Positions 1-3,638 of a stretch of DNA of 4,278 bases are shown here, piece after piece; the stretch's first letter is position 1; every line of letters begins with the position of its first letter. The notes beneath the pieces are model-generated. The model was given only the letters and a program-made list of their open reading frames with translations, was not told the DNA's origin and searched no databases. The position numbers were made by a program, and so were the translations under genes. This stretch comes from a virus (lineage: Duplodnaviria > Heunggongvirae > Uroviricota > Caudoviricetes): the IMG/VR virus record IMGVR_UViG_2703718871_000027, one strand, 5' to 3'.

Positions 1-1230
1 ATGAGCAGAGCACTTAACAAACTGAGCGATACACAGCTGAGGAAAATCAACGGCACACCCGCCCAAAAAACAGCCTTTCTTAATGACGGTGGAAACCTGA
101 GCGTCAGGCATTCAACCAGTGGCCTTTTAACCTGGTATTTCACTTACAGGGCCGGAACGGGAAGGGGGGCACCACCGGAACGCATTAAGCTGGGAAATTA
201 TCCTGATCTGAGCCTGAAATCAGCCAGGGAAAAAGCCGCCCAGTGTCGCGCATGGCTGGCAGAGGGGAAAAATCCACGTCATGAAATGAATTACACCGTA
301 CAGGAAGCGTTAAAGCCGGTAACGGTTGGCGATGCGCTCACCTACTGGCTTGAGTCGTACGCAAAGGAAAACCGTGTGGATTATGACCCACTGAAAAAGC
401 GGCTAAATAATCACGTAATACAGCACATTGGCCCTATGCCGCTGGATAAATGCGAGCTACGGCACTGGCTGGCCTGTTTTGATCGGGTGGCAAAGAAAGC
501 CCCTGTTTCCGCCGGGTTCCTGCTACAGACATGCAAGCAGGCGCTTAAGTTCTGCAGGAAGCGGCGCTATGCAATCAGCAACGTTCTTGATGATATGAGT
601 GTGGCGGACGTTGGGAAAAAACCGGATATAAGTGAGCGTGTCTTAAGTAACAAAGAACTTGGCGAATTATTGCAGGCACTGGACAAAAAAATATTTTCCC
701 CTTACTACGTCGCACTAATCCGCCTCCTGATTGTTTTCGGATGCCGGACAGTAGAACTGAGGTTATCGGAGATCGGCGAGTGGGATTTTACCGAAATGCT
801 CTGGACCGTTCCGAAGGAGCACAGCAAAACGAAGGTAGCCATATTCCGGCCCATACCGGAAGCGATACTGCCGTTCGTCACGCAGCTGGTGGAGCAGAAC
901 AGGCACACGGGCTTATTGCTGGGGGAAGTGAAACAGGAAACCAGCGTATCGCAGTACGGCAGATTGGTGCACAGGAGGCTTAAACACCCTCACTGGTCAC
1001 TGCATGACATCCGGCGCACCTTTACAACCATGCTGAACGATTTAGGCGTTGATCCTCACGTCGTGGAGCAGCTTACAGGCCACCAGATGCCAGGAATGCA
1101 ACGCGTGTACAACCATTCCCGCTATATTGATGCGAAACGCAATGCGCTTGATATGTGGGTGGAGCGGTTGGAGATACTGGCGGGAACACATGAAAACGTA
1201 ACCACGCTACCAGTAACCAGAATAAAATAA
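1..1230 (+). CDS. int: Tyrosine recombinase, P4-type integrase family (N-terminal arm-binding domain plus C-terminal catalytic domain)
   Basis: 409-aa ORF from ATG at 1 to TAA at 1228-1230. N-terminus (LSDTQLRK...LNDGGNLSVRHSTSGLLTWYFTYR) fits the P4-integrase arm-binding domain pattern. C-terminal half has the tyrosine-recombinase catalytic residues in order: GCRTVELRLSE (Arg), HDIRRTF (His-x-x-Arg), GHQMPGMQRVYNHSRY (His and Tyr nucleophile). Window starts at the ATG, so an upstream extension cannot be excluded. Confidence 0.9.
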   Translation: MSRALNKLSDTQLRKINGTPAQKTAFLNDGGNLSVRHSTSGLLTWYFTYRAGTGRGAPPERIKLGNYPDLSLKSAREKAAQCRAWLAEGKNPRHEMNYTVQEALKPVTVGDALTYWLESYAKENRVDYDPLKKRLNNHVIQHIGPMPLDKCELRHWLACFDRVAKKAPVSAGFLLQTCKQALKFCRKRRYAISNVLDDMSVADVGKKPDISERVLSNKELGELLQALDKKIFSPYYVALIRLLIVFGCRTVELRLSEIGEWDFTEMLWTVPKEHSKTKVAIFRPIPEAILPFVTQLVEQNRHTGLLLGEVKQETSVSQYGRLVHRRLKHPHWSLHDIRRTFTTMLNDLGVDPHVVEQLTGHQMPGMQRVYNHSRYIDAKRNALDMWVERLEILAGTHENVTTLPVTRIK

Positions 1231-1450: not shown

Positions 1451-1534
1451 AACATGAATTTAAATGATTTTATCCTGATTATTCCTCTTTCTGTAAACCA
1501 TGCGACACCAACATTTGCCAACTCTGAATCATCC

Positions 1535-1545
1535 TGACACAATCA
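1535..1545. repeat. Third copy of the TGACACAATCA motif, about 60 bp upstream of the alpA start
   Basis: Exact 11-mer shared with 1305-1315. Its position just upstream of alpA suggests a regulatory site. Confidence 0.3.
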
Positions 1546-1604
1546 GACACATCCCAACGCAATAGAACACGAAATAACTCTTTAAGAAACGAAAGGGGGC
1601 AATA

Positions 1605-1793
1605 GTGTTAAGCACTGATCGGTTTATACGTGAAAAAGAATGCGAAAAGCTAACAGGCCTTAGCCGCTCATGCCGCTACCGCCTGGAAAAGGCCGGACAA
1701 TTCCCATCACGTCGTAAACTTGGCGGGCGTTCTGTTGGCTGGTCTTTATCTGAGGTTTTGGCCTGGAAGGATAGCTGCAAGGCAGTTCACTAA
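1605..1793 (+). CDS. alpA: AlpA/Vis-family (MerR-like HTH) prophage transcriptional regulator
   Basis: 62-aa ORF with GTG start at 1605, preceded by SD AGGGGG (1594-1599, 5-nt spacer). The segment FPSRRKLGGRSVGWSLSEVLAWK matches the conserved AlpA-family signature (FP..R.LG.[KR]SVGW...E...W). Sits immediately downstream of the integrase, as in CP4-57-type elements. Confidence 0.85.
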   Translation: MLSTDRFIREKECEKLTGLSRSCRYRLEKAGQFPSRRKLGGRSVGWSLSEVLAWKDSCKAVH

Positions 1794-1833: not shown

Positions 1834-1857
1834 CCGATACCGGGATCTCGGTATCGG
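1834..1857. repeat. Perfect 9-bp inverted repeat CCGATACCG-N6-CGGTATCGG downstream of alpA
   Basis: ccgataccg (1834-1842) and cggtatcgg (1849-1857) are exact reverse complements. No U-tract follows on either strand, so a protein-binding palindrome or RNA hairpin is more likely than a canonical terminator. Confidence 0.5.
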
Positions 1858-1973
1858 GAATAAACGCCATAATACTGAGGTATAACCATGATGAAATATA
1901 CGCCCGTACAGGGGCGGGGATTCGTTCGCCCTGGTGAATCTGAAAAGCCATGCTATAGGGTATTTTCAGGCAT

Positions 1974-2001
1974 AAAAAAAGCGGTCCCGATATGGAACCG
2001 C
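1974..2001 (-). terminator. Rho-independent terminator for the leftward A1-B1 operon (weaker in the + direction)
   Basis: GC-rich hairpin gcggtcc...ggaaccgc (1981-2001). On the minus strand it is followed directly by U7 (complement of the A7 run at 1974-1980). On the + strand it is followed by CTTTCT. Lies about 70 nt downstream of the B1 stop. Confidence 0.55.
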
Positions 2002-2069
2002 CTTTCTGAACAATTAACCCGCTGCGCCGTATGTGTCAACAATCATAAGCCCGAACATGATAACCGTGA

Positions 2070-2273
2070 TCAGGCTGGTGGGCAATTACCTTGCTTGTTG
2101 GGGCCGTATTGTGCTGCCATTTTCATCCGTTCAGAACGTGAATATTTTTTTAGAAACTCATCAAGGACAAAAGCGCATGGAGCGAATCTTTCTGATTCAT
2201 GCTCGAGCGCCATATTTTCGTGCTCTCTGTTCGTTTTTTGCGATGGTGTATTGGTTGATTCTTTATTGGTCAT
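2070..2273 (-). CDS. Hypothetical small protein B1 (67 aa), second gene of leftward cassette-1 operon
   Basis: ORF from ATG (complement of 2271-2273) to TGA (complement of 2070-2072), with a weak SD (AGGT) 7 nt upstream. Paralogous to B2: shared MTN N-terminus, F[AV]L[ED][DE]F..KY.R block and PP[AG] C-terminus. Same 57-nt spacing after the A gene in both cassettes. No recognisable domain. Confidence 0.4.
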   Translation of the reverse strand: MTNKESTNTPSQKTNREHENMALEHESERFAPCAFVLDEFLKKYSRSERMKMAAQYGPNKQGNCPPA

Positions 2274-2294
2274 TGTGTGTACCTGTAAAGCAAT

Positions 2295-2321
2295 GCGCCG
2301 TAGTACCTCACGCCACGGCGC
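2295..2321 (-). other. Conserved hairpin between A1 and B1 (possible partial terminator or RNA processing site)
   Basis: Stem gcgccgt (2295-2301) pairs with acggcgc (2315-2321), 13-nt loop. On the minus strand it is followed by AUUGCUUUA. Nearly identical to the copy at 3036-3062 (one loop difference). Confidence 0.4.
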
Positions 2322-2330
2322 TGATAGTAA

Positions 2331-2510
2331 TTATTCTGATTCTTTGGCCTTGCGGCGCTGGCGGCGTTTGATCTCGCCTTTTGCTGCCGTAACTAGAAAT
2401 CCGGCGGTACTTTCGCCAGGTTCTTTAAGTTGCTCAATATCGGTCATTACCTCATGCGGGATTCTGACCGTTGTCATTTGTGATTTTGCGTTCTTTGCAC
2501 CTGTTGCCAT
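2331..2510 (-). CDS. Ribbon-helix-helix (Arc/MetJ-like) DNA-binding protein A1, 59 aa; putative cassette-1 repressor
   Basis: ATG at complement of 2508-2510, preceded by SD AGGAGA (7-nt spacer); stop TAA at complement of 2331-2333. Sequence MATGAKNAKSQMTTVRIPHEVMTDIEQLKEPGESTAGFLVTAAKGEIKRRQRRKAKESE has the RHH layout: beta-strand (TTVRIP), helix A (HEVMTDIEQL), G-x-S turn (PGES), helix B, basic tail. 63 percent identical to A2 with no gaps. The longer 134-aa track ORF (2331..2735) is rejected because it would cross the promoter/operator region. Confidence 0.65.
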   Translation of the reverse strand: MATGAKNAKSQMTTVRIPHEVMTDIEQLKEPGESTAGFLVTAAKGEIKRRQRRKAKESE

Positions 2511-2530
2511 TTCTGGTTCTCCTGATAATC

Positions 2531-2623
2531 GGTGTATTTCAGTATACGCAAAAAAAAAGATAAAAAAAGTCTTGCGGTGTATTTCACCTGAATGTAGATT
2601 TAAAAATGAAGGTGAAATACACC
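2531..2623. promoter_or_regulatory. Cassette-1 divergent promoter/operator region with three GGTGTATTTCACC-type sites
   Basis: Sites at 2531-2542 (ggtgtatttcag), 2576-2588 (ggtgtatttcacc) and, inverted, 2611-2623 (ggtgaaatacacc). Candidate rightward promoter: -35 TTGCGG (2572-2577), 17-bp spacer, -10 TAGATT (2595-2600). Candidate leftward -10 TATACT (complement of 2541-2546), overlapping the first site. Operators overlap promoter elements as expected for repression and autoregulation. Confidence 0.5.
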
Positions 2624-2634
2624 CAAAACAACAA

Positions 2635-2666
2635 CGCCCCGCAGTGATGGGAACACATACGGGGCG
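2635..2666 (+). other. Cassette-1 rightward leader hairpin (7-bp GC stem) ahead of a conserved RBS and ORF start
   Basis: cgccccg (2635-2641) pairs with cggggcg (2660-2666), 18-nt loop. Followed by TCTAACCAA, SD GAGG (2686-2689) and ATG 2698. The same order of elements occurs in cassette 2 (hairpin 3385-3411, TCTAACCAA, GAGGAG, ATG 3444). Confidence 0.4.
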
Positions 2667-2747
2667 TCTAACCAAACCATTAATTGAGGTAACGATTATG
2701 GCTATAAAAGAGCATAGCTTACTCTTTATACACACACAAACGCCCCG

Positions 2748-2767
2748 GAAACGGAATAATCCGTTTC
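2748..2767 (-). terminator. Weak hairpin at the 3' end of the cassette-2 leftward operon (downstream of B2)
   Basis: gaaacgg (2748-2754) pairs with ccgtttc (2761-2767), loop aataat. On the minus strand it is followed by a G/U-rich stretch (CGGGGCGUUUGUGUGUGU), not a clean U-tract. On the + strand a displaced T-run (2777-2780) follows. Confidence 0.3.
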
Positions 2768-2786
2768 ATAGTTCGGTTTTGTGCAC

Positions 2787-3014
2787 TCATCCTGGCGGTC
2801 GGTTTTTGCCGGATTTAAGCCGCCGTGGGTATTTATCGACAAAATCTTCAAGGGCAAATTTTTCTGGTGGCACTAAGCGCGGCGCTGGTGGTGGTATTTT
2901 TGTTCTGGTTAGTTCTTCCTCAACTCTGGCGCAGGCTTCTGACTGCCTTTGCCGGATGATTTCATCATCTTGCGTTTGCGTGTCTTGTATTGGTGATAGT
3001 GTGTTGTTGGTCAT
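2787..3014 (-). CDS. Hypothetical small protein B2 (75 aa, Pro/charge-rich), second gene of leftward cassette-2 operon
   Basis: ATG at complement of 3012-3014 with SD AGGG 7 nt upstream; stop TGA at complement of 2787-2789. Paralog of B1 with the same gene order and 57-nt spacing after the A gene. No recognisable domain. Confidence 0.4.
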   Translation of the reverse strand: MTNNTLSPIQDTQTQDDEIIRQRQSEACARVEEELTRTKIPPPAPRLVPPEKFALEDFVDKYPRRLKSGKNRPPG

Positions 3015-3035
3015 GATACTGCCCTGTAAAGCAAT

Positions 3036-3062
3036 GCGCCGTAGTACCTCACACCACGGCGC
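3036..3062 (-). other. Conserved hairpin between A2 and B2 (copy of 2295-2321)
   Basis: Stem gcgccgt (3036-3042) pairs with acggcgc (3056-3062). Identical stem and near-identical loop to the cassette-1 copy. Confidence 0.4.
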
Positions 3063-3071
3063 TGATAGTGA

Positions 3072-3251
3072 TTATTCTGATTCTTTGGCCTTGCGACGCT
3101 GGCGGTATTCAACTTCCCGCTTTAATGCAGCTGTAACAAACTGCCCTGTACTTTCGCCGGGCATTTTTACCGCCTCAACATTGTTCATAACTTCATGTGG
3201 AACCCTTGCCGCAACTGTTTGTGATTTTGCGTTTACTGCTTTTGTCGCCAT
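3072..3251 (-). CDS. Ribbon-helix-helix (Arc/MetJ-like) DNA-binding protein A2, 59 aa; putative cassette-2 repressor
   Basis: ATG at complement of 3249-3251 with SD GAGGGG 8 nt upstream (an in-frame GTG 9 nt further upstream is possible but has no SD); stop TAA at complement of 3072-3074. Sequence MATKAVNAKSQTVAARVPHEVMNNVEAVKMPGESTGQFVTAALKREVEYRQRRKAKESE aligns with the Arc repressor fold pattern (beta-strand, P-x-E-V helix A, G-x-S turn, helix B). Paralog of A1. Confidence 0.65.
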   Translation of the reverse strand: MATKAVNAKSQTVAARVPHEVMNNVEAVKMPGESTGQFVTAALKREVEYRQRRKAKESE

Positions 3252-3280
3252 GTTGAGCACCCCTCATAAAAAACAAATGC

Positions 3281-3354
3281 AGTATGCAGGAAAAAAAACA
3301 AGTGTTCAACACTTGACGTGTTTAACACCTCGATTTAAATTGGTGTTCAACACC
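3281..3354. promoter_or_regulatory. Cassette-2 divergent promoter/operator region with three GTGTT-N-AACAC palindromes
   Basis: Palindromes at 3302-3312 (gtgttcaacac), 3318-3328 (gtgtttaacac) and 3342-3354 (ggtgttcaacacc). Rightward promoter: -35 TTGACG (3313-3318), 17-bp spacer, -10 TAAATT (3336-3341); the sites sit upstream of -35, in the spacer, and over the predicted start site. Leftward promoter: -35 TTGAAC (complement of 3304-3309, inside the first site), 17-bp spacer, -10 CATACT (complement of 3281-3286). Confidence 0.55.
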
Positions 3355-3384
3355 TTATTTAGGCAAGGTGTAGAAACGACGAAA

Positions 3385-3411
3385 CCCCGCACTGTAGGAG
3401 CAGTAACGGGG
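3385..3411 (+). other. Cassette-2 rightward leader hairpin (counterpart of 2635-2666)
   Basis: Outer stem ccccg (3385-3389) pairs with cgggg (3407-3411); inner stem actg (3391-3394) pairs with cagt (3401-3404); loop taggag. Followed by TCTAACCAA, SD GAGGAG (3433-3438) and ATG 3444. Confidence 0.4.
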
Positions 3412-3443
3412 CTTCTAACCAACAACGTAAACGAGGAGCCGTT

Positions 3444-3638
3444 ATGGTTGCCGTAAATCATATACCACACCTTGTACACACACAAACGGCCTTTGTGTGG
3501 CGTTTTCTGGCACTGAGTGCCGGAGAATCTCAAATAATCCACGTAACCGCCTGGACGGAACGCGAAGCACGTAACCGTTGCCCGTCAGGTTGTGTTGCTG
3601 TATTCGCCGCCCGTATTCGCCAGGGGGTAGGCTTATGA
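3444..3638 (+). CDS. Hypothetical protein (64 aa), first gene of rightward operon
   Basis: Strong SD GAGGAG with 5-nt spacer to ATG 3444. N-terminus M-[AV]-[IV]-x-x-H-x-x-x-[FL]-[IV]-H-T-Q-T is shared with the cassette-1 start at 2698. Stop TGA (3636-3638) overlaps the next ATG (ATGA), indicating translational coupling. Caveat: hairpins lie inside codons 12-27, so the 5' part may act as RNA. Confidence 0.45.
   Translation: MVAVNHIPHLVHTQTAFVWRFLALSAGESQIIHVTAWTEREARNRCPSGCVAVFAARIRQGVGL
3479..3508 (+). terminator. Terminator/attenuator-like hairpin inside the 5' end of ORF 3444-3638
   Basis: cacacaaa (3479-3486) pairs with tttgtgtg (3492-3499), loop cggcc, followed by GCGTTTTCT (3500-3508). 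A second hairpin follows immediately: ctggcac-tga-gtgccgg (3507-3523). Confidence 0.3.

Follow-up and report, generated by a model that had tools for sequence, protein, structure and literature searches.

Do two neighboring genes for small, similar DNA-binding proteins on one genetic element act on the same sites, or does each of them possess its own, and what would such an arrangement control? This question is raised by a stretch of 4,278 nucleotides from a virus of the Caudoviricetes (IMG/VR record IMGVR_UViG_2703718871_000027), which in its full length is the window of this study and which contains, in tandem, the genes A1 and A2. Their products probably serve enterobacterial phage-inducible chromosomal islands (PICIs) as operator-matched immunity repressors, with a ribbon-helix-helix (RHH) fold and a predicted lack of cross-reaction, and the tandem probably represents a rare recombinant. 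The fold, the sites, their covariation with the proteins, natural swaps of the recognition segment, and the genomic context carry this reading.

Both genes are located on the minus strand, each with a Shine-Dalgarno sequence 7 to 8 nucleotides upstream of the ATG (AGGAG for A1, GAGGGG for A2):

2331-2510 (-): A1, a predicted 59-residue RHH protein of the YlcI/YnfO family, strand motif Q11-M-T-T-V15 followed by R16
3072-3251 (-): A2, a predicted 59-residue RHH protein of the YlcI/YnfO family, strand motif Q11-T-V-A-A15 followed by R16

Each cassette, cassette 1 with A1 and cassette 2 with A2, contains three putative operators around a rightward promoter, P_R1 or P_R2, respectively:

2532-2542 (unstranded): A1 operator O1, GTGTATTTCAG, one mismatch to GTGTATTTCAC, adjoining the putative A1 promoter at its -10 box TATACT (2541-2546, minus strand)
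2577-2587 (unstranded): A1 operator O2, GTGTATTTCAC, within the spacer of P_R1, at a 66-nucleotide offset kept across the family
2612-2622 (unstranded): A1 operator O3, GTGAAATACAC, an inverted copy just 3' of the -10 box of P_R1, also found as an inverted repeat
2571-2599 (+): P_R1, putative promoter, TTGCGG-17 nucleotides-TAGATT, read from the sequence and under the threshold of the scan tool
3302-3312 (unstranded): A2 operator upstream of the -35 box of P_R2, GTGTTCAACAC, a site that QT[VIL]AA-type loci have at offset 50
3318-3328 (unstranded): A2 operator in the spacer of P_R2, GTGTTTAACAC, one mismatch to GTGTTCAACAC
3343-3353 (unstranded): A2 operator just 3' of the -10 box of P_R2, GTGTTCAACAC
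3313-3341 (+): P_R2, promoter, TTGACG-17 nucleotides-TAAATT, promoter scan 9/12, ahead of the operon with the Icd-like, replication, and packaging genes
3444-3638 (+): Icd-like gene, first gene of the rightward operon (NF033153, 64.9 bits)

The A1 promoter was assigned by eye from the sequence. On the minus strand, the A2 operator at 3302-3312 holds TTGAAC (3304-3309), the putative -35 box of the A2 promoter, with CATACT at 3281-3286 as the -10 box. The operators of A1 and A2 differ in four central bases. Compared with the three sites per cassette, shuffled sequences gave an expectation of 0.07 to 0.09 chance matches, and none of 200 shuffles reached the observed count. In a related locus with a stand-alone copy of A1 (L198), O3 was kept although the flanking bases had diverged, and the position homologous to P_R1 reads TTGAAG...TAAATT, ahead of an intact Icd-like gene.

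Evaluation of the specificity of A1 and A2 needs to consider where the two proteins differ. The initial annotation had placed the differences mainly in the predicted DNA-reading strand. A1 and A2 aligned without a gap over all 59 residues (BLASTP E = 4e-25) with 36/59 identical positions, or 61%, close to the about 63% given before. The segments PHEVM (18-22), PGEST (31-35), and RQRRKAKESE (50-59), already described as conserved, were identical in both proteins, and residues 12-17 were indeed unlike at five of six positions, MTTVRI in A1 versus TVAARV in A2. "Mainly" was nevertheless an overstatement, with only 5 of the 23 differences within 12-17. The other 18 were in the helices and the N-terminal arm: six fell within 23-30, eight within 39-49, and two each at 36-37 and in the arm. 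Six-residue windows starting at 23 and 36 were equally divergent (5/6), and the enrichment of differences in 12-17 reached a Fisher p of 0.03, uncorrected and for a window picked after the fact. The strand stands out because of the covariation across the whole family and not because of the A1/A2 comparison alone. The further proposal that the strand difference tracks the operators agreed with the data: each cassette has its own triple operator, and strand and operator covaried among 64 distinct homologs.

These homologs with readable sites came from 198 related loci in genomes, viral contigs, and metagenomes. The offsets of the sites from the start codon of the A gene were constant, 21, 66, and 88 to 92 nucleotides, and recurred in about 20 strand-motif types from Escherichia, Salmonella, Klebsiella, Pectobacterium, Serratia, Xenorhabdus, Proteus, and other genera. 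The site at 21 nucleotides, present in nearly all homologous loci, is beside a -10-like TATACT or CATACT box on the strand of the A gene; the site at 66 nucleotides (O2) directly follows the TTGAC -35 box of the rightward promoter, and the site at 88 to 92 nucleotides follows the -10 box. All sites fitted GTGnn-N-nnCAC, with constant outer triplets and a center that varied with residues 11-15 of the protein:

QT[VIL]AA: operator GTGTTCAACAC
QMTTV: operator GTGTATTTCAC
QSVTA: operator GTGTAAGACAC
[KR]KLEA: operator GTGGCTGACAC
QK[LVI]Q[AT]: operator GTGGA-n-TCCAC
Q[AS]LK[AS]: operator GTGG[GA]CCACAC
QKMSA: operator GTGGGTGCCAC
KR[FI]D[AV]: operator GTGTC[CG][GC]ACAC
KKIDV: operator GTGTC[AT]GACAC
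QK[TI]SV: operator GTGTCCG[TA]CAC

As judged from these aligned sites, the YlcI/YnfO operators appear to comprise at least ten specificity types. With operator classes formed by single linkage at one mismatch, which over-merged them, column 14 of the protein alignment contained 1.88 of 2.00 bits of information about the operator class, at a between-class identity of 0.00, and column 12 contained 1.28 bits; these were the top two columns, and Arg16 was invariant among the 64 homologs. The pairwise analysis, which avoids over-merging, showed operators 0 to 1 bases apart in 338 of the 346 pairs identical at 12 and 14; among the 1670 pairs unlike at these positions, the distance was 2 bases or more in 1632. 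Identity at residues 12 and 14 predicted the identity of the operator far better than did the identity over residues 18-50. The type of the neighboring Icd-like gene was uncoupled from the operator class.

Natural chimeras matter most in this respect because shared descent inflates covariation statistics. The proteins of L004 and L091 agree in all of residues 1-10 and in 30 of 33 positions (91%) of 18-50, share none of residues 11-15, and have different operators. Another homolog (P0027) combines the helix B of A2 with a QSVTA strand, and its operators are of the QSVTA type. Conversely, the QT[VIL]AA class uses one operator despite an identity of 48 to 52% in 18-50. The chimeras support, at the level of sequence comparison, the mapping of specificity to residues 11-15. 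Alternatively, specificity might be set mainly outside residues 12 and 14, by positions 4-6 of the N-terminal arm or by the helices, with the strand differences as mere hitch-hikers. Columns 4-6, 17, 36, and 39 contained 0.6 to 0.9 bits on the operator class, and the 18 A1/A2 differences outside the strand point in the same direction, but both chimeras and the QT[VIL]AA class speak against this possibility and make it improbable.

Which fold would present these residues to the DNA? A1 and A2 scored 62.1 and 59.7 bits with NCBIfam NF041551 (YlcI/YnfO; curated cutoff 30), which is also the RefSeq label of identical proteins, and both matched PHROG 949, a family of unknown function, end to end. 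The YlcI/YnfO family (NF041551; PHROG 949 and 6522) is named after prophage genes of Escherichia coli K-12 and has no assigned function; the papers found to mention it say only "prophage-associated protein," and its fold, operators, and role are proposed here. Literature searches with YlcI, YnfO, DUF3950, and PICI plus ribbon-helix-helix, which did not cover subscription-only papers, found no functional study. The family is small and mostly enterobacterial; when its profile was searched against 1.84 billion representative proteins, 84 clusters were recovered.

Structure prediction, for which the initial annotation had named a non-RHH fold as the outcome that would speak against it, yielded AlphaFold2 monomer models of A1 and A2 with a predicted local distance difference test (pLDDT) score of 86 and 92, respectively, and both matched solved RHH proteins almost exclusively. 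The topology was alike in both: an extended N-terminal segment, a helix at 19-28, a turn at PGEST, and a second helix at 35-58, which corresponds to the order of beta-strand, helix A, and helix B in about 45 to 55 residues of RHH proteins. RHH proteins possess a G-x-S/T/N motif at the turn between helices A and B, and G32-E33-S34, invariant in 45 homologs, is in the loop between the predicted helices. In the ribbon-helix-helix strand, alternate positions turn toward the DNA. That this is also the case here was indicated indirectly by columns 12 and 14 as predictors of the operator, by the invariant R16, and by the natural swaps. A local alignment of A1 with Arc paired M12, T14, and R16 with Q9, N11, and R13 of Arc, which are reportedly the base-contacting residues in the crystal structure of Arc with its operator. 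The models support the assignment of A1 and A2 as RHH proteins of the YlcI/YnfO family. A helix-hairpin-helix fold as in the 8-kDa domain of DNA polymerase beta, the best phmmer hit among PDB sequences (E = 0.15), was dropped because both models matched RHH structures and not polymerase beta.

A dimer of A1 or A2 would presumably bind to the 11-bp (pseudo)palindrome GTGnn-N-nnCAC. The outer GTG/CAC would be read by the invariant Arg16, probably together with the conserved N-terminal arm, and the variable central bases by the outward-facing strand residues 12 and 14, matching A1 (M12, T14) to GTGTATTTCAC and A2 (T12, A14) to GTGTTCAACAC; the four central base differences should prevent cross-recognition. 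Since the three sites of each cassette extend over the rightward promoter, at its spacer and start region, and also over the leftward promoter of the A gene itself, the repressor would silence the operon of the Icd-like, replication, and packaging genes and regulate its own gene. This is the layout of a PICI master repressor, whose gene is next to the replication and packaging operon in divergent orientation, with sites at the -35/-10 spacer and the start of P_R. A global repressor in Gram-negative PICIs was called "unclear" in a 2018 paper, which described AlpA as an activator (PMC6092414), and the YlcI/YnfO family is the best candidate for this function. The proteins might instead bind to these sites as activators or as architectural, replication-origin, or excision cofactors and not as master repressors. 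This is rather unlikely, because sites in the -35/-10 spacer, in the start region of P_R, and in the own promoter form the classic layout of repression and autoregulation, and because the PICI replication origin has been placed further downstream, with the primase and SSB genes (PMC10111431).

Several points weigh against a function of A1 and A2 as specific RHH repressors. Dimerization, binding, repression, and the absence of cross-reaction are predictions from the sequence. The Pfam scan of A1 and A2 returned nothing above noise and no RHH model, and only 2 of 55 family members reached Pfam RHH_1, with a best E value of 4.5e-4, so that a curated sequence model such as RHH_1 does not place the family among the RHH proteins. 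In profile searches against PDB sequences, RHH hits were nonsignificant (E about 0.7 to 0.8). In the monomer models, DSSP assigned no strand, and the ribbon was not visible. A site of 11 bp is long for a single RHH ribbon, and O1 is degenerate in the A2 cassette. Inflation of the covariation by shared descent is a problem that the chimeras lessen but do not remove. Moreover, the regulator that experiments have shown to be necessary for induction and transfer is AlpA and not a repressor (bioRxiv 10.1101/2022.09.08.507074; PMC6092414). Finally, P_R1 now drives no intact gene, and A1 may be idle in this island for this reason.

The last point leads to the origin of the tandem. The initial annotation had regarded A1 and A2 as paralogs. 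The DNA identity of the two genes is 68% overall, or about 61% outside a 3' block, but the term itself is doubtful, because this block of 83 nucleotides (2286-2368 versus 3027-3109) is 94% identical between the cassettes and each type also exists alone. The A2-type cassette alone was common: 487 of 5426 E. coli genomes contained it with a coverage of 80% or more. The exact A1 cassette was rare (21 of 5426), and a stand-alone A1-type cassette, 87% identical and with an intact Icd-like gene, was found in a classical PICI. Compared with the stand-alone L198 copy, A1 showed 13 synonymous and 2 nonsynonymous codon changes, with operators kept in a diverged spacer, a pattern that suggests selection. 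The tandem itself occurred in about 21 to 25 of the 5426 E. coli genomes. Of the roughly 98 QTVAA-type A genes in the collected loci, 4 were part of a tandem; these 4 include the window and two near-identical records of E. coli. The 83-nucleotide block, composed of the last 38 nucleotides of the A gene and a GC-rich hairpin GCGCCGTGG...CTACGGCGC, also follows the A gene of the prototype island EcCICFT073 (L201 8416-8480) and is likely a recombination backbone plus a partial terminator ahead of a small downstream open reading frame (ORF). The features between and behind the A genes are as follows:

2070-2273 (-): orf67, 67 residues, hydrophilic, 3' of A1; PHROG 21027, unknown function
2295-2321 (-): hairpin GCGCCGTGGCGTGAGGTACTACGGCGC, 3' of the A1 stop and ahead of orf67, within the block 2286-2368; also present after the A gene in EcCICFT073
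2698-2745 (+): Icd-like stump of cassette 1, with Shine-Dalgarno sequence, ATG, and about 15 codons; the homology to the intact A1-type cassette stops near 2716
2787-3014 (-): orf75, 75 residues, hydrophilic, 3' of A2; shares only an F-x-L-x-x-F-x-x-K-Y motif with orf67
3036-3062 (-): hairpin of 12 pairs with a weak T tail, 3' of the A2 stop and ahead of orf75

Because both types exist singly, the Icd-like gene of cassette 1 is cut, and the 3' blocks are 94% identical, the tandem looks like two immunity types that were joined by recombination at the conserved backbone and not like an in-place duplication. An A1-type cassette with a truncated rightward gene would have come to lie upstream of a complete A2-type cassette. 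P_R1 now drives only the Icd-like stump and reads antisense into orf75 and A2. In this position, A1 could repress P_R1, which would otherwise transcribe into A2, could provide immunity against A1-type satellites, or could be idle.

A less probable explanation is that only A2 is functional and cassette 1 is a relic of recombination without a role, an intact gene on a decapitated rightward unit. The truncated Icd-like gene, the rarity of the tandem, and the existence of both types as single cassettes agree with such a relic. On the other hand, A1 is intact, and so are its Shine-Dalgarno sequence, P_R1, and the three operators. The tandem was present at no fewer than two chromosomal sites, with different integrases (roxA/pepT, L001; pntB/tqsA, L002), and an unrepressed P_R1 would run antisense into A2. 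In addition, the repeat period of 741 nucleotides equals exactly 247 codons, and a long rightward frame is open through both cassettes. A very different explanation, that A1/orf67 and A2/orf75 are type II toxin-antitoxin pairs of an RHH antitoxin and a small toxin, is hardly credible. The A gene is monocistronic in most genera and followed by a terminator-like hairpin, with the downstream ORFs absent there; a 57-residue homolog of orf67 follows the A gene in EcCICFT073 and is absent from most other genera. The hydrophilic products of orf67 and orf75, unrelated to each other apart from the one short motif, matched no toxin family in Pfam, NCBIfam, or PADLOC, and the operators are on the divergent promoter of the replication operon and not only on the promoter of the A gene itself. 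A toxin-antitoxin module was rejected, since no conserved cognate toxin gene was found.

The surroundings of the tandem agree with a repressor function of A1 and A2. At its 5' end, the window starts with a tyrosine integrase gene (1-1230, plus strand), followed by an AlpA-family gene (1605-1793, plus strand). In near-identical E. coli chromosomal regions, the genes that follow rightward encode DUF4222, the RepA helicase, SSB, and PerC, followed by the major capsid protein, prohead protease, portal, head-closure, and connector proteins, HNH, and the small and large terminase subunits. The window thus covers the control region of a capsid-forming PICI (cf-PICI), with the tandem between alpA and the replication genes. 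The gene set matches cf-PICIs of the EcCIEDL933 type (bioRxiv 10.1101/2022.09.08.507074). An A2-type repressor with identical residues 1-57 and the same three operators was also present in another genus, in Edwardsiella hoshinae (L003, NZ_BAUC01000010.1), which agrees with the published near-identical cf-PICIs across species and genera.

The prototype island EcCICFT073 of E. coli CFT073 contains the same module, a QALKA-type family member (L201 8474-8653, C_RS30120) with matching GTGGGCCACAC sites, divergent from the Icd-like gene. In the annotation of this island, the YlcI/YnfO gene and the small downstream ORF have high-numbered locus tags, which suggests that both were late additions; earlier PICI maps may have shown the overlapping rightward ORF of 428 residues at this locus instead.

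Two known repressor systems may be compared with this module. Like Stl/Rpr of the Gram-positive PICIs (Staphylococcus aureus pathogenicity islands, SaPIs), the A genes are divergent from the replication and packaging operon and near int, and their products are predicted to keep the island silent and would come in many specificity types (PMC6092414). In contrast to Stl/Rpr, they are far smaller, homology was found only to YlcI/YnfO, and alpA, which encodes the required activator in Gram-negative PICIs, is located between int and the repressor gene. With Arc/Mnt of the P22 immI region, from the Arc/MetJ/CopG superfamily, A1 and A2 share the format of a small beta-alpha-alpha protein of about 55 residues and the G-x-S turn between the helices. 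The R-[VW]-P-x-E-V junction of strand and helix A also aligns with Arc, which puts 12/14/16 opposite Q9/N11/R13. As in Arc/Mnt, the operators overlap promoters, and related proteins with different strands face different operators. Differences are the lack of a significant profile match of A1 and A2 to a Pfam RHH family or PDB chain, an N-terminal arm (MATxxxNAKS) that is long and nearly invariant, a helix B with a long basic tail, three dispersed 11-bp sites instead of one 21-bp operator bound by a tetramer, and the location of the A gene in a phage satellite and not in a phage; a tblastn search with A2 in 50,697 phage records gave no match.

What is new is the functional assignment and an architectural variant of a well-known type of switch; the YlcI/YnfO label was already that of NCBI. 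The assignment proposes a function for a family labeled only by two y-gene names of K-12 and provides a concrete repressor candidate, next to alpA, for an open question of PICI biology, present in EcCICFT073 and in the genus-crossing cf-PICIs. The family is also a natural specificity series, one scaffold with constant Arg16-GTG/CAC contacts and two variable residues in at least ten combinations, which is useful to study or engineer RHH recognition and to obtain orthogonal repressor-operator pairs.

If A1 and A2 are repressors, how could AlpA induce the island? The repressor genes are embedded in another reading frame, and each leader of the rightward operon contains a hairpin:

1888-3456 (+): long frame, 522 codons without a stop, with a Shine-Dalgarno sequence and ATG 95 nucleotides after alpA, antisense through both cassettes, ending 12 nucleotides past the ATG of the Icd-like gene
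2626-2655 (+): leader hairpin of cassette 1, followed by GTCTAACCA (2656-2664)
3385-3411 (+): leader hairpin of cassette 2, followed by TTCTAACCA (3413-3421)

The long frame survived the tandem because the repeat period is a multiple of three. Equivalent frames run in phase into the Icd-like gene in EcCICFT073 (L201 7767-9053) and L198 (3177-4184). The operator-leader region was free of stops in this frame in 29 of 42 sequence clusters; the other two frames were open in 3 and 1 clusters, and shuffling gave an expectation of 2%. Family scans of the long ORF gave no match where it overlaps the A genes and operators, with Phage_ASH, PHROG 29966, and Icd-like matches beginning after the leader, and for this reason no functional protein domain is claimed for the antisense part. 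The leader hairpin, located between the last operator and the ribosome-binding site of the Icd-like gene and followed by a nearly invariant CTnACC(A), showed compensatory changes in 9 of 10 pairs across 26 diverse loci and had no match in Rfam. It could be an element similar to seqA/CI of P4 or of an antitermination type.

The P4 immunity region contains a vis/alpA homolog, eta with the nested kil, the internal promoter P_LE, the CI RNA, and seqA. Similar to this arrangement, the window has a long ORF just after an alpA-type gene, an internal promoter of the constitutive type, and a short in-frame gene at the end, here the Icd-like gene. The difference is that the immunity proposed here would depend on a protein repressor, encoded on the opposite strand within the long ORF, and not on an RNA. 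RNA immunity of the P4/P1 type was rejected as a candidate, since no Rfam match to C4 or isrK was found in the window at E values up to 1. A tblastn search with the Icd-like protein in the 50,697 phage records returned one 16.5-kb "phage" record, which was not P4, and did not show homology to kil.

In P4, translation of the long eta ORF from an upstream promoter overrides immunity (PMC10111431). By analogy, induction could proceed without removal of the repressor: AlpA-driven read-through would be translated across the repressor gene and the operators, like the late transcript of P4, would collide with expression of the repressor, and would reach the replication operon. With low confidence, such translated read-through may bypass the repressed promoters. 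A wider model, which we consider conceivable but doubtful, would be that YlcI/YnfO proteins are the master repressors of Gram-negative PICIs including the prototypes, with induction by AlpA read-through, and were overlooked because their gene is antisense inside a long eta-like ORF that was possibly annotated instead. The ten or more operator types would then be immunity groups that allow several satellites to share one cell, and the tandem would equip a single island with two immunities or with a two-key lock.

Three further features were observed in the window outside of the cassettes. The sole Rfam hit in the window, to a Brucella small RNA at 1381-1462 in the int-alpA spacer, was below threshold (27 bits versus a gathering score of 114) and is probably due to chance, with a terminator hairpin at this position. 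A near-perfect palindrome of 24 nucleotides, CCGATACCGGGATCTCGGTATCGG (1834-1857, plus strand), follows the alpA stop and precedes the long ORF; because it has no T-run, it could be a binding site for a protein or a factor-dependent terminator. The spacer between int and alpA contains clustered short repeats of the ACAATGTG / GACACAAT type at 1262-1320 and 1520-1575 (plus strand), which may be candidate arm-type sites of the integrase or binding sites of AlpA.

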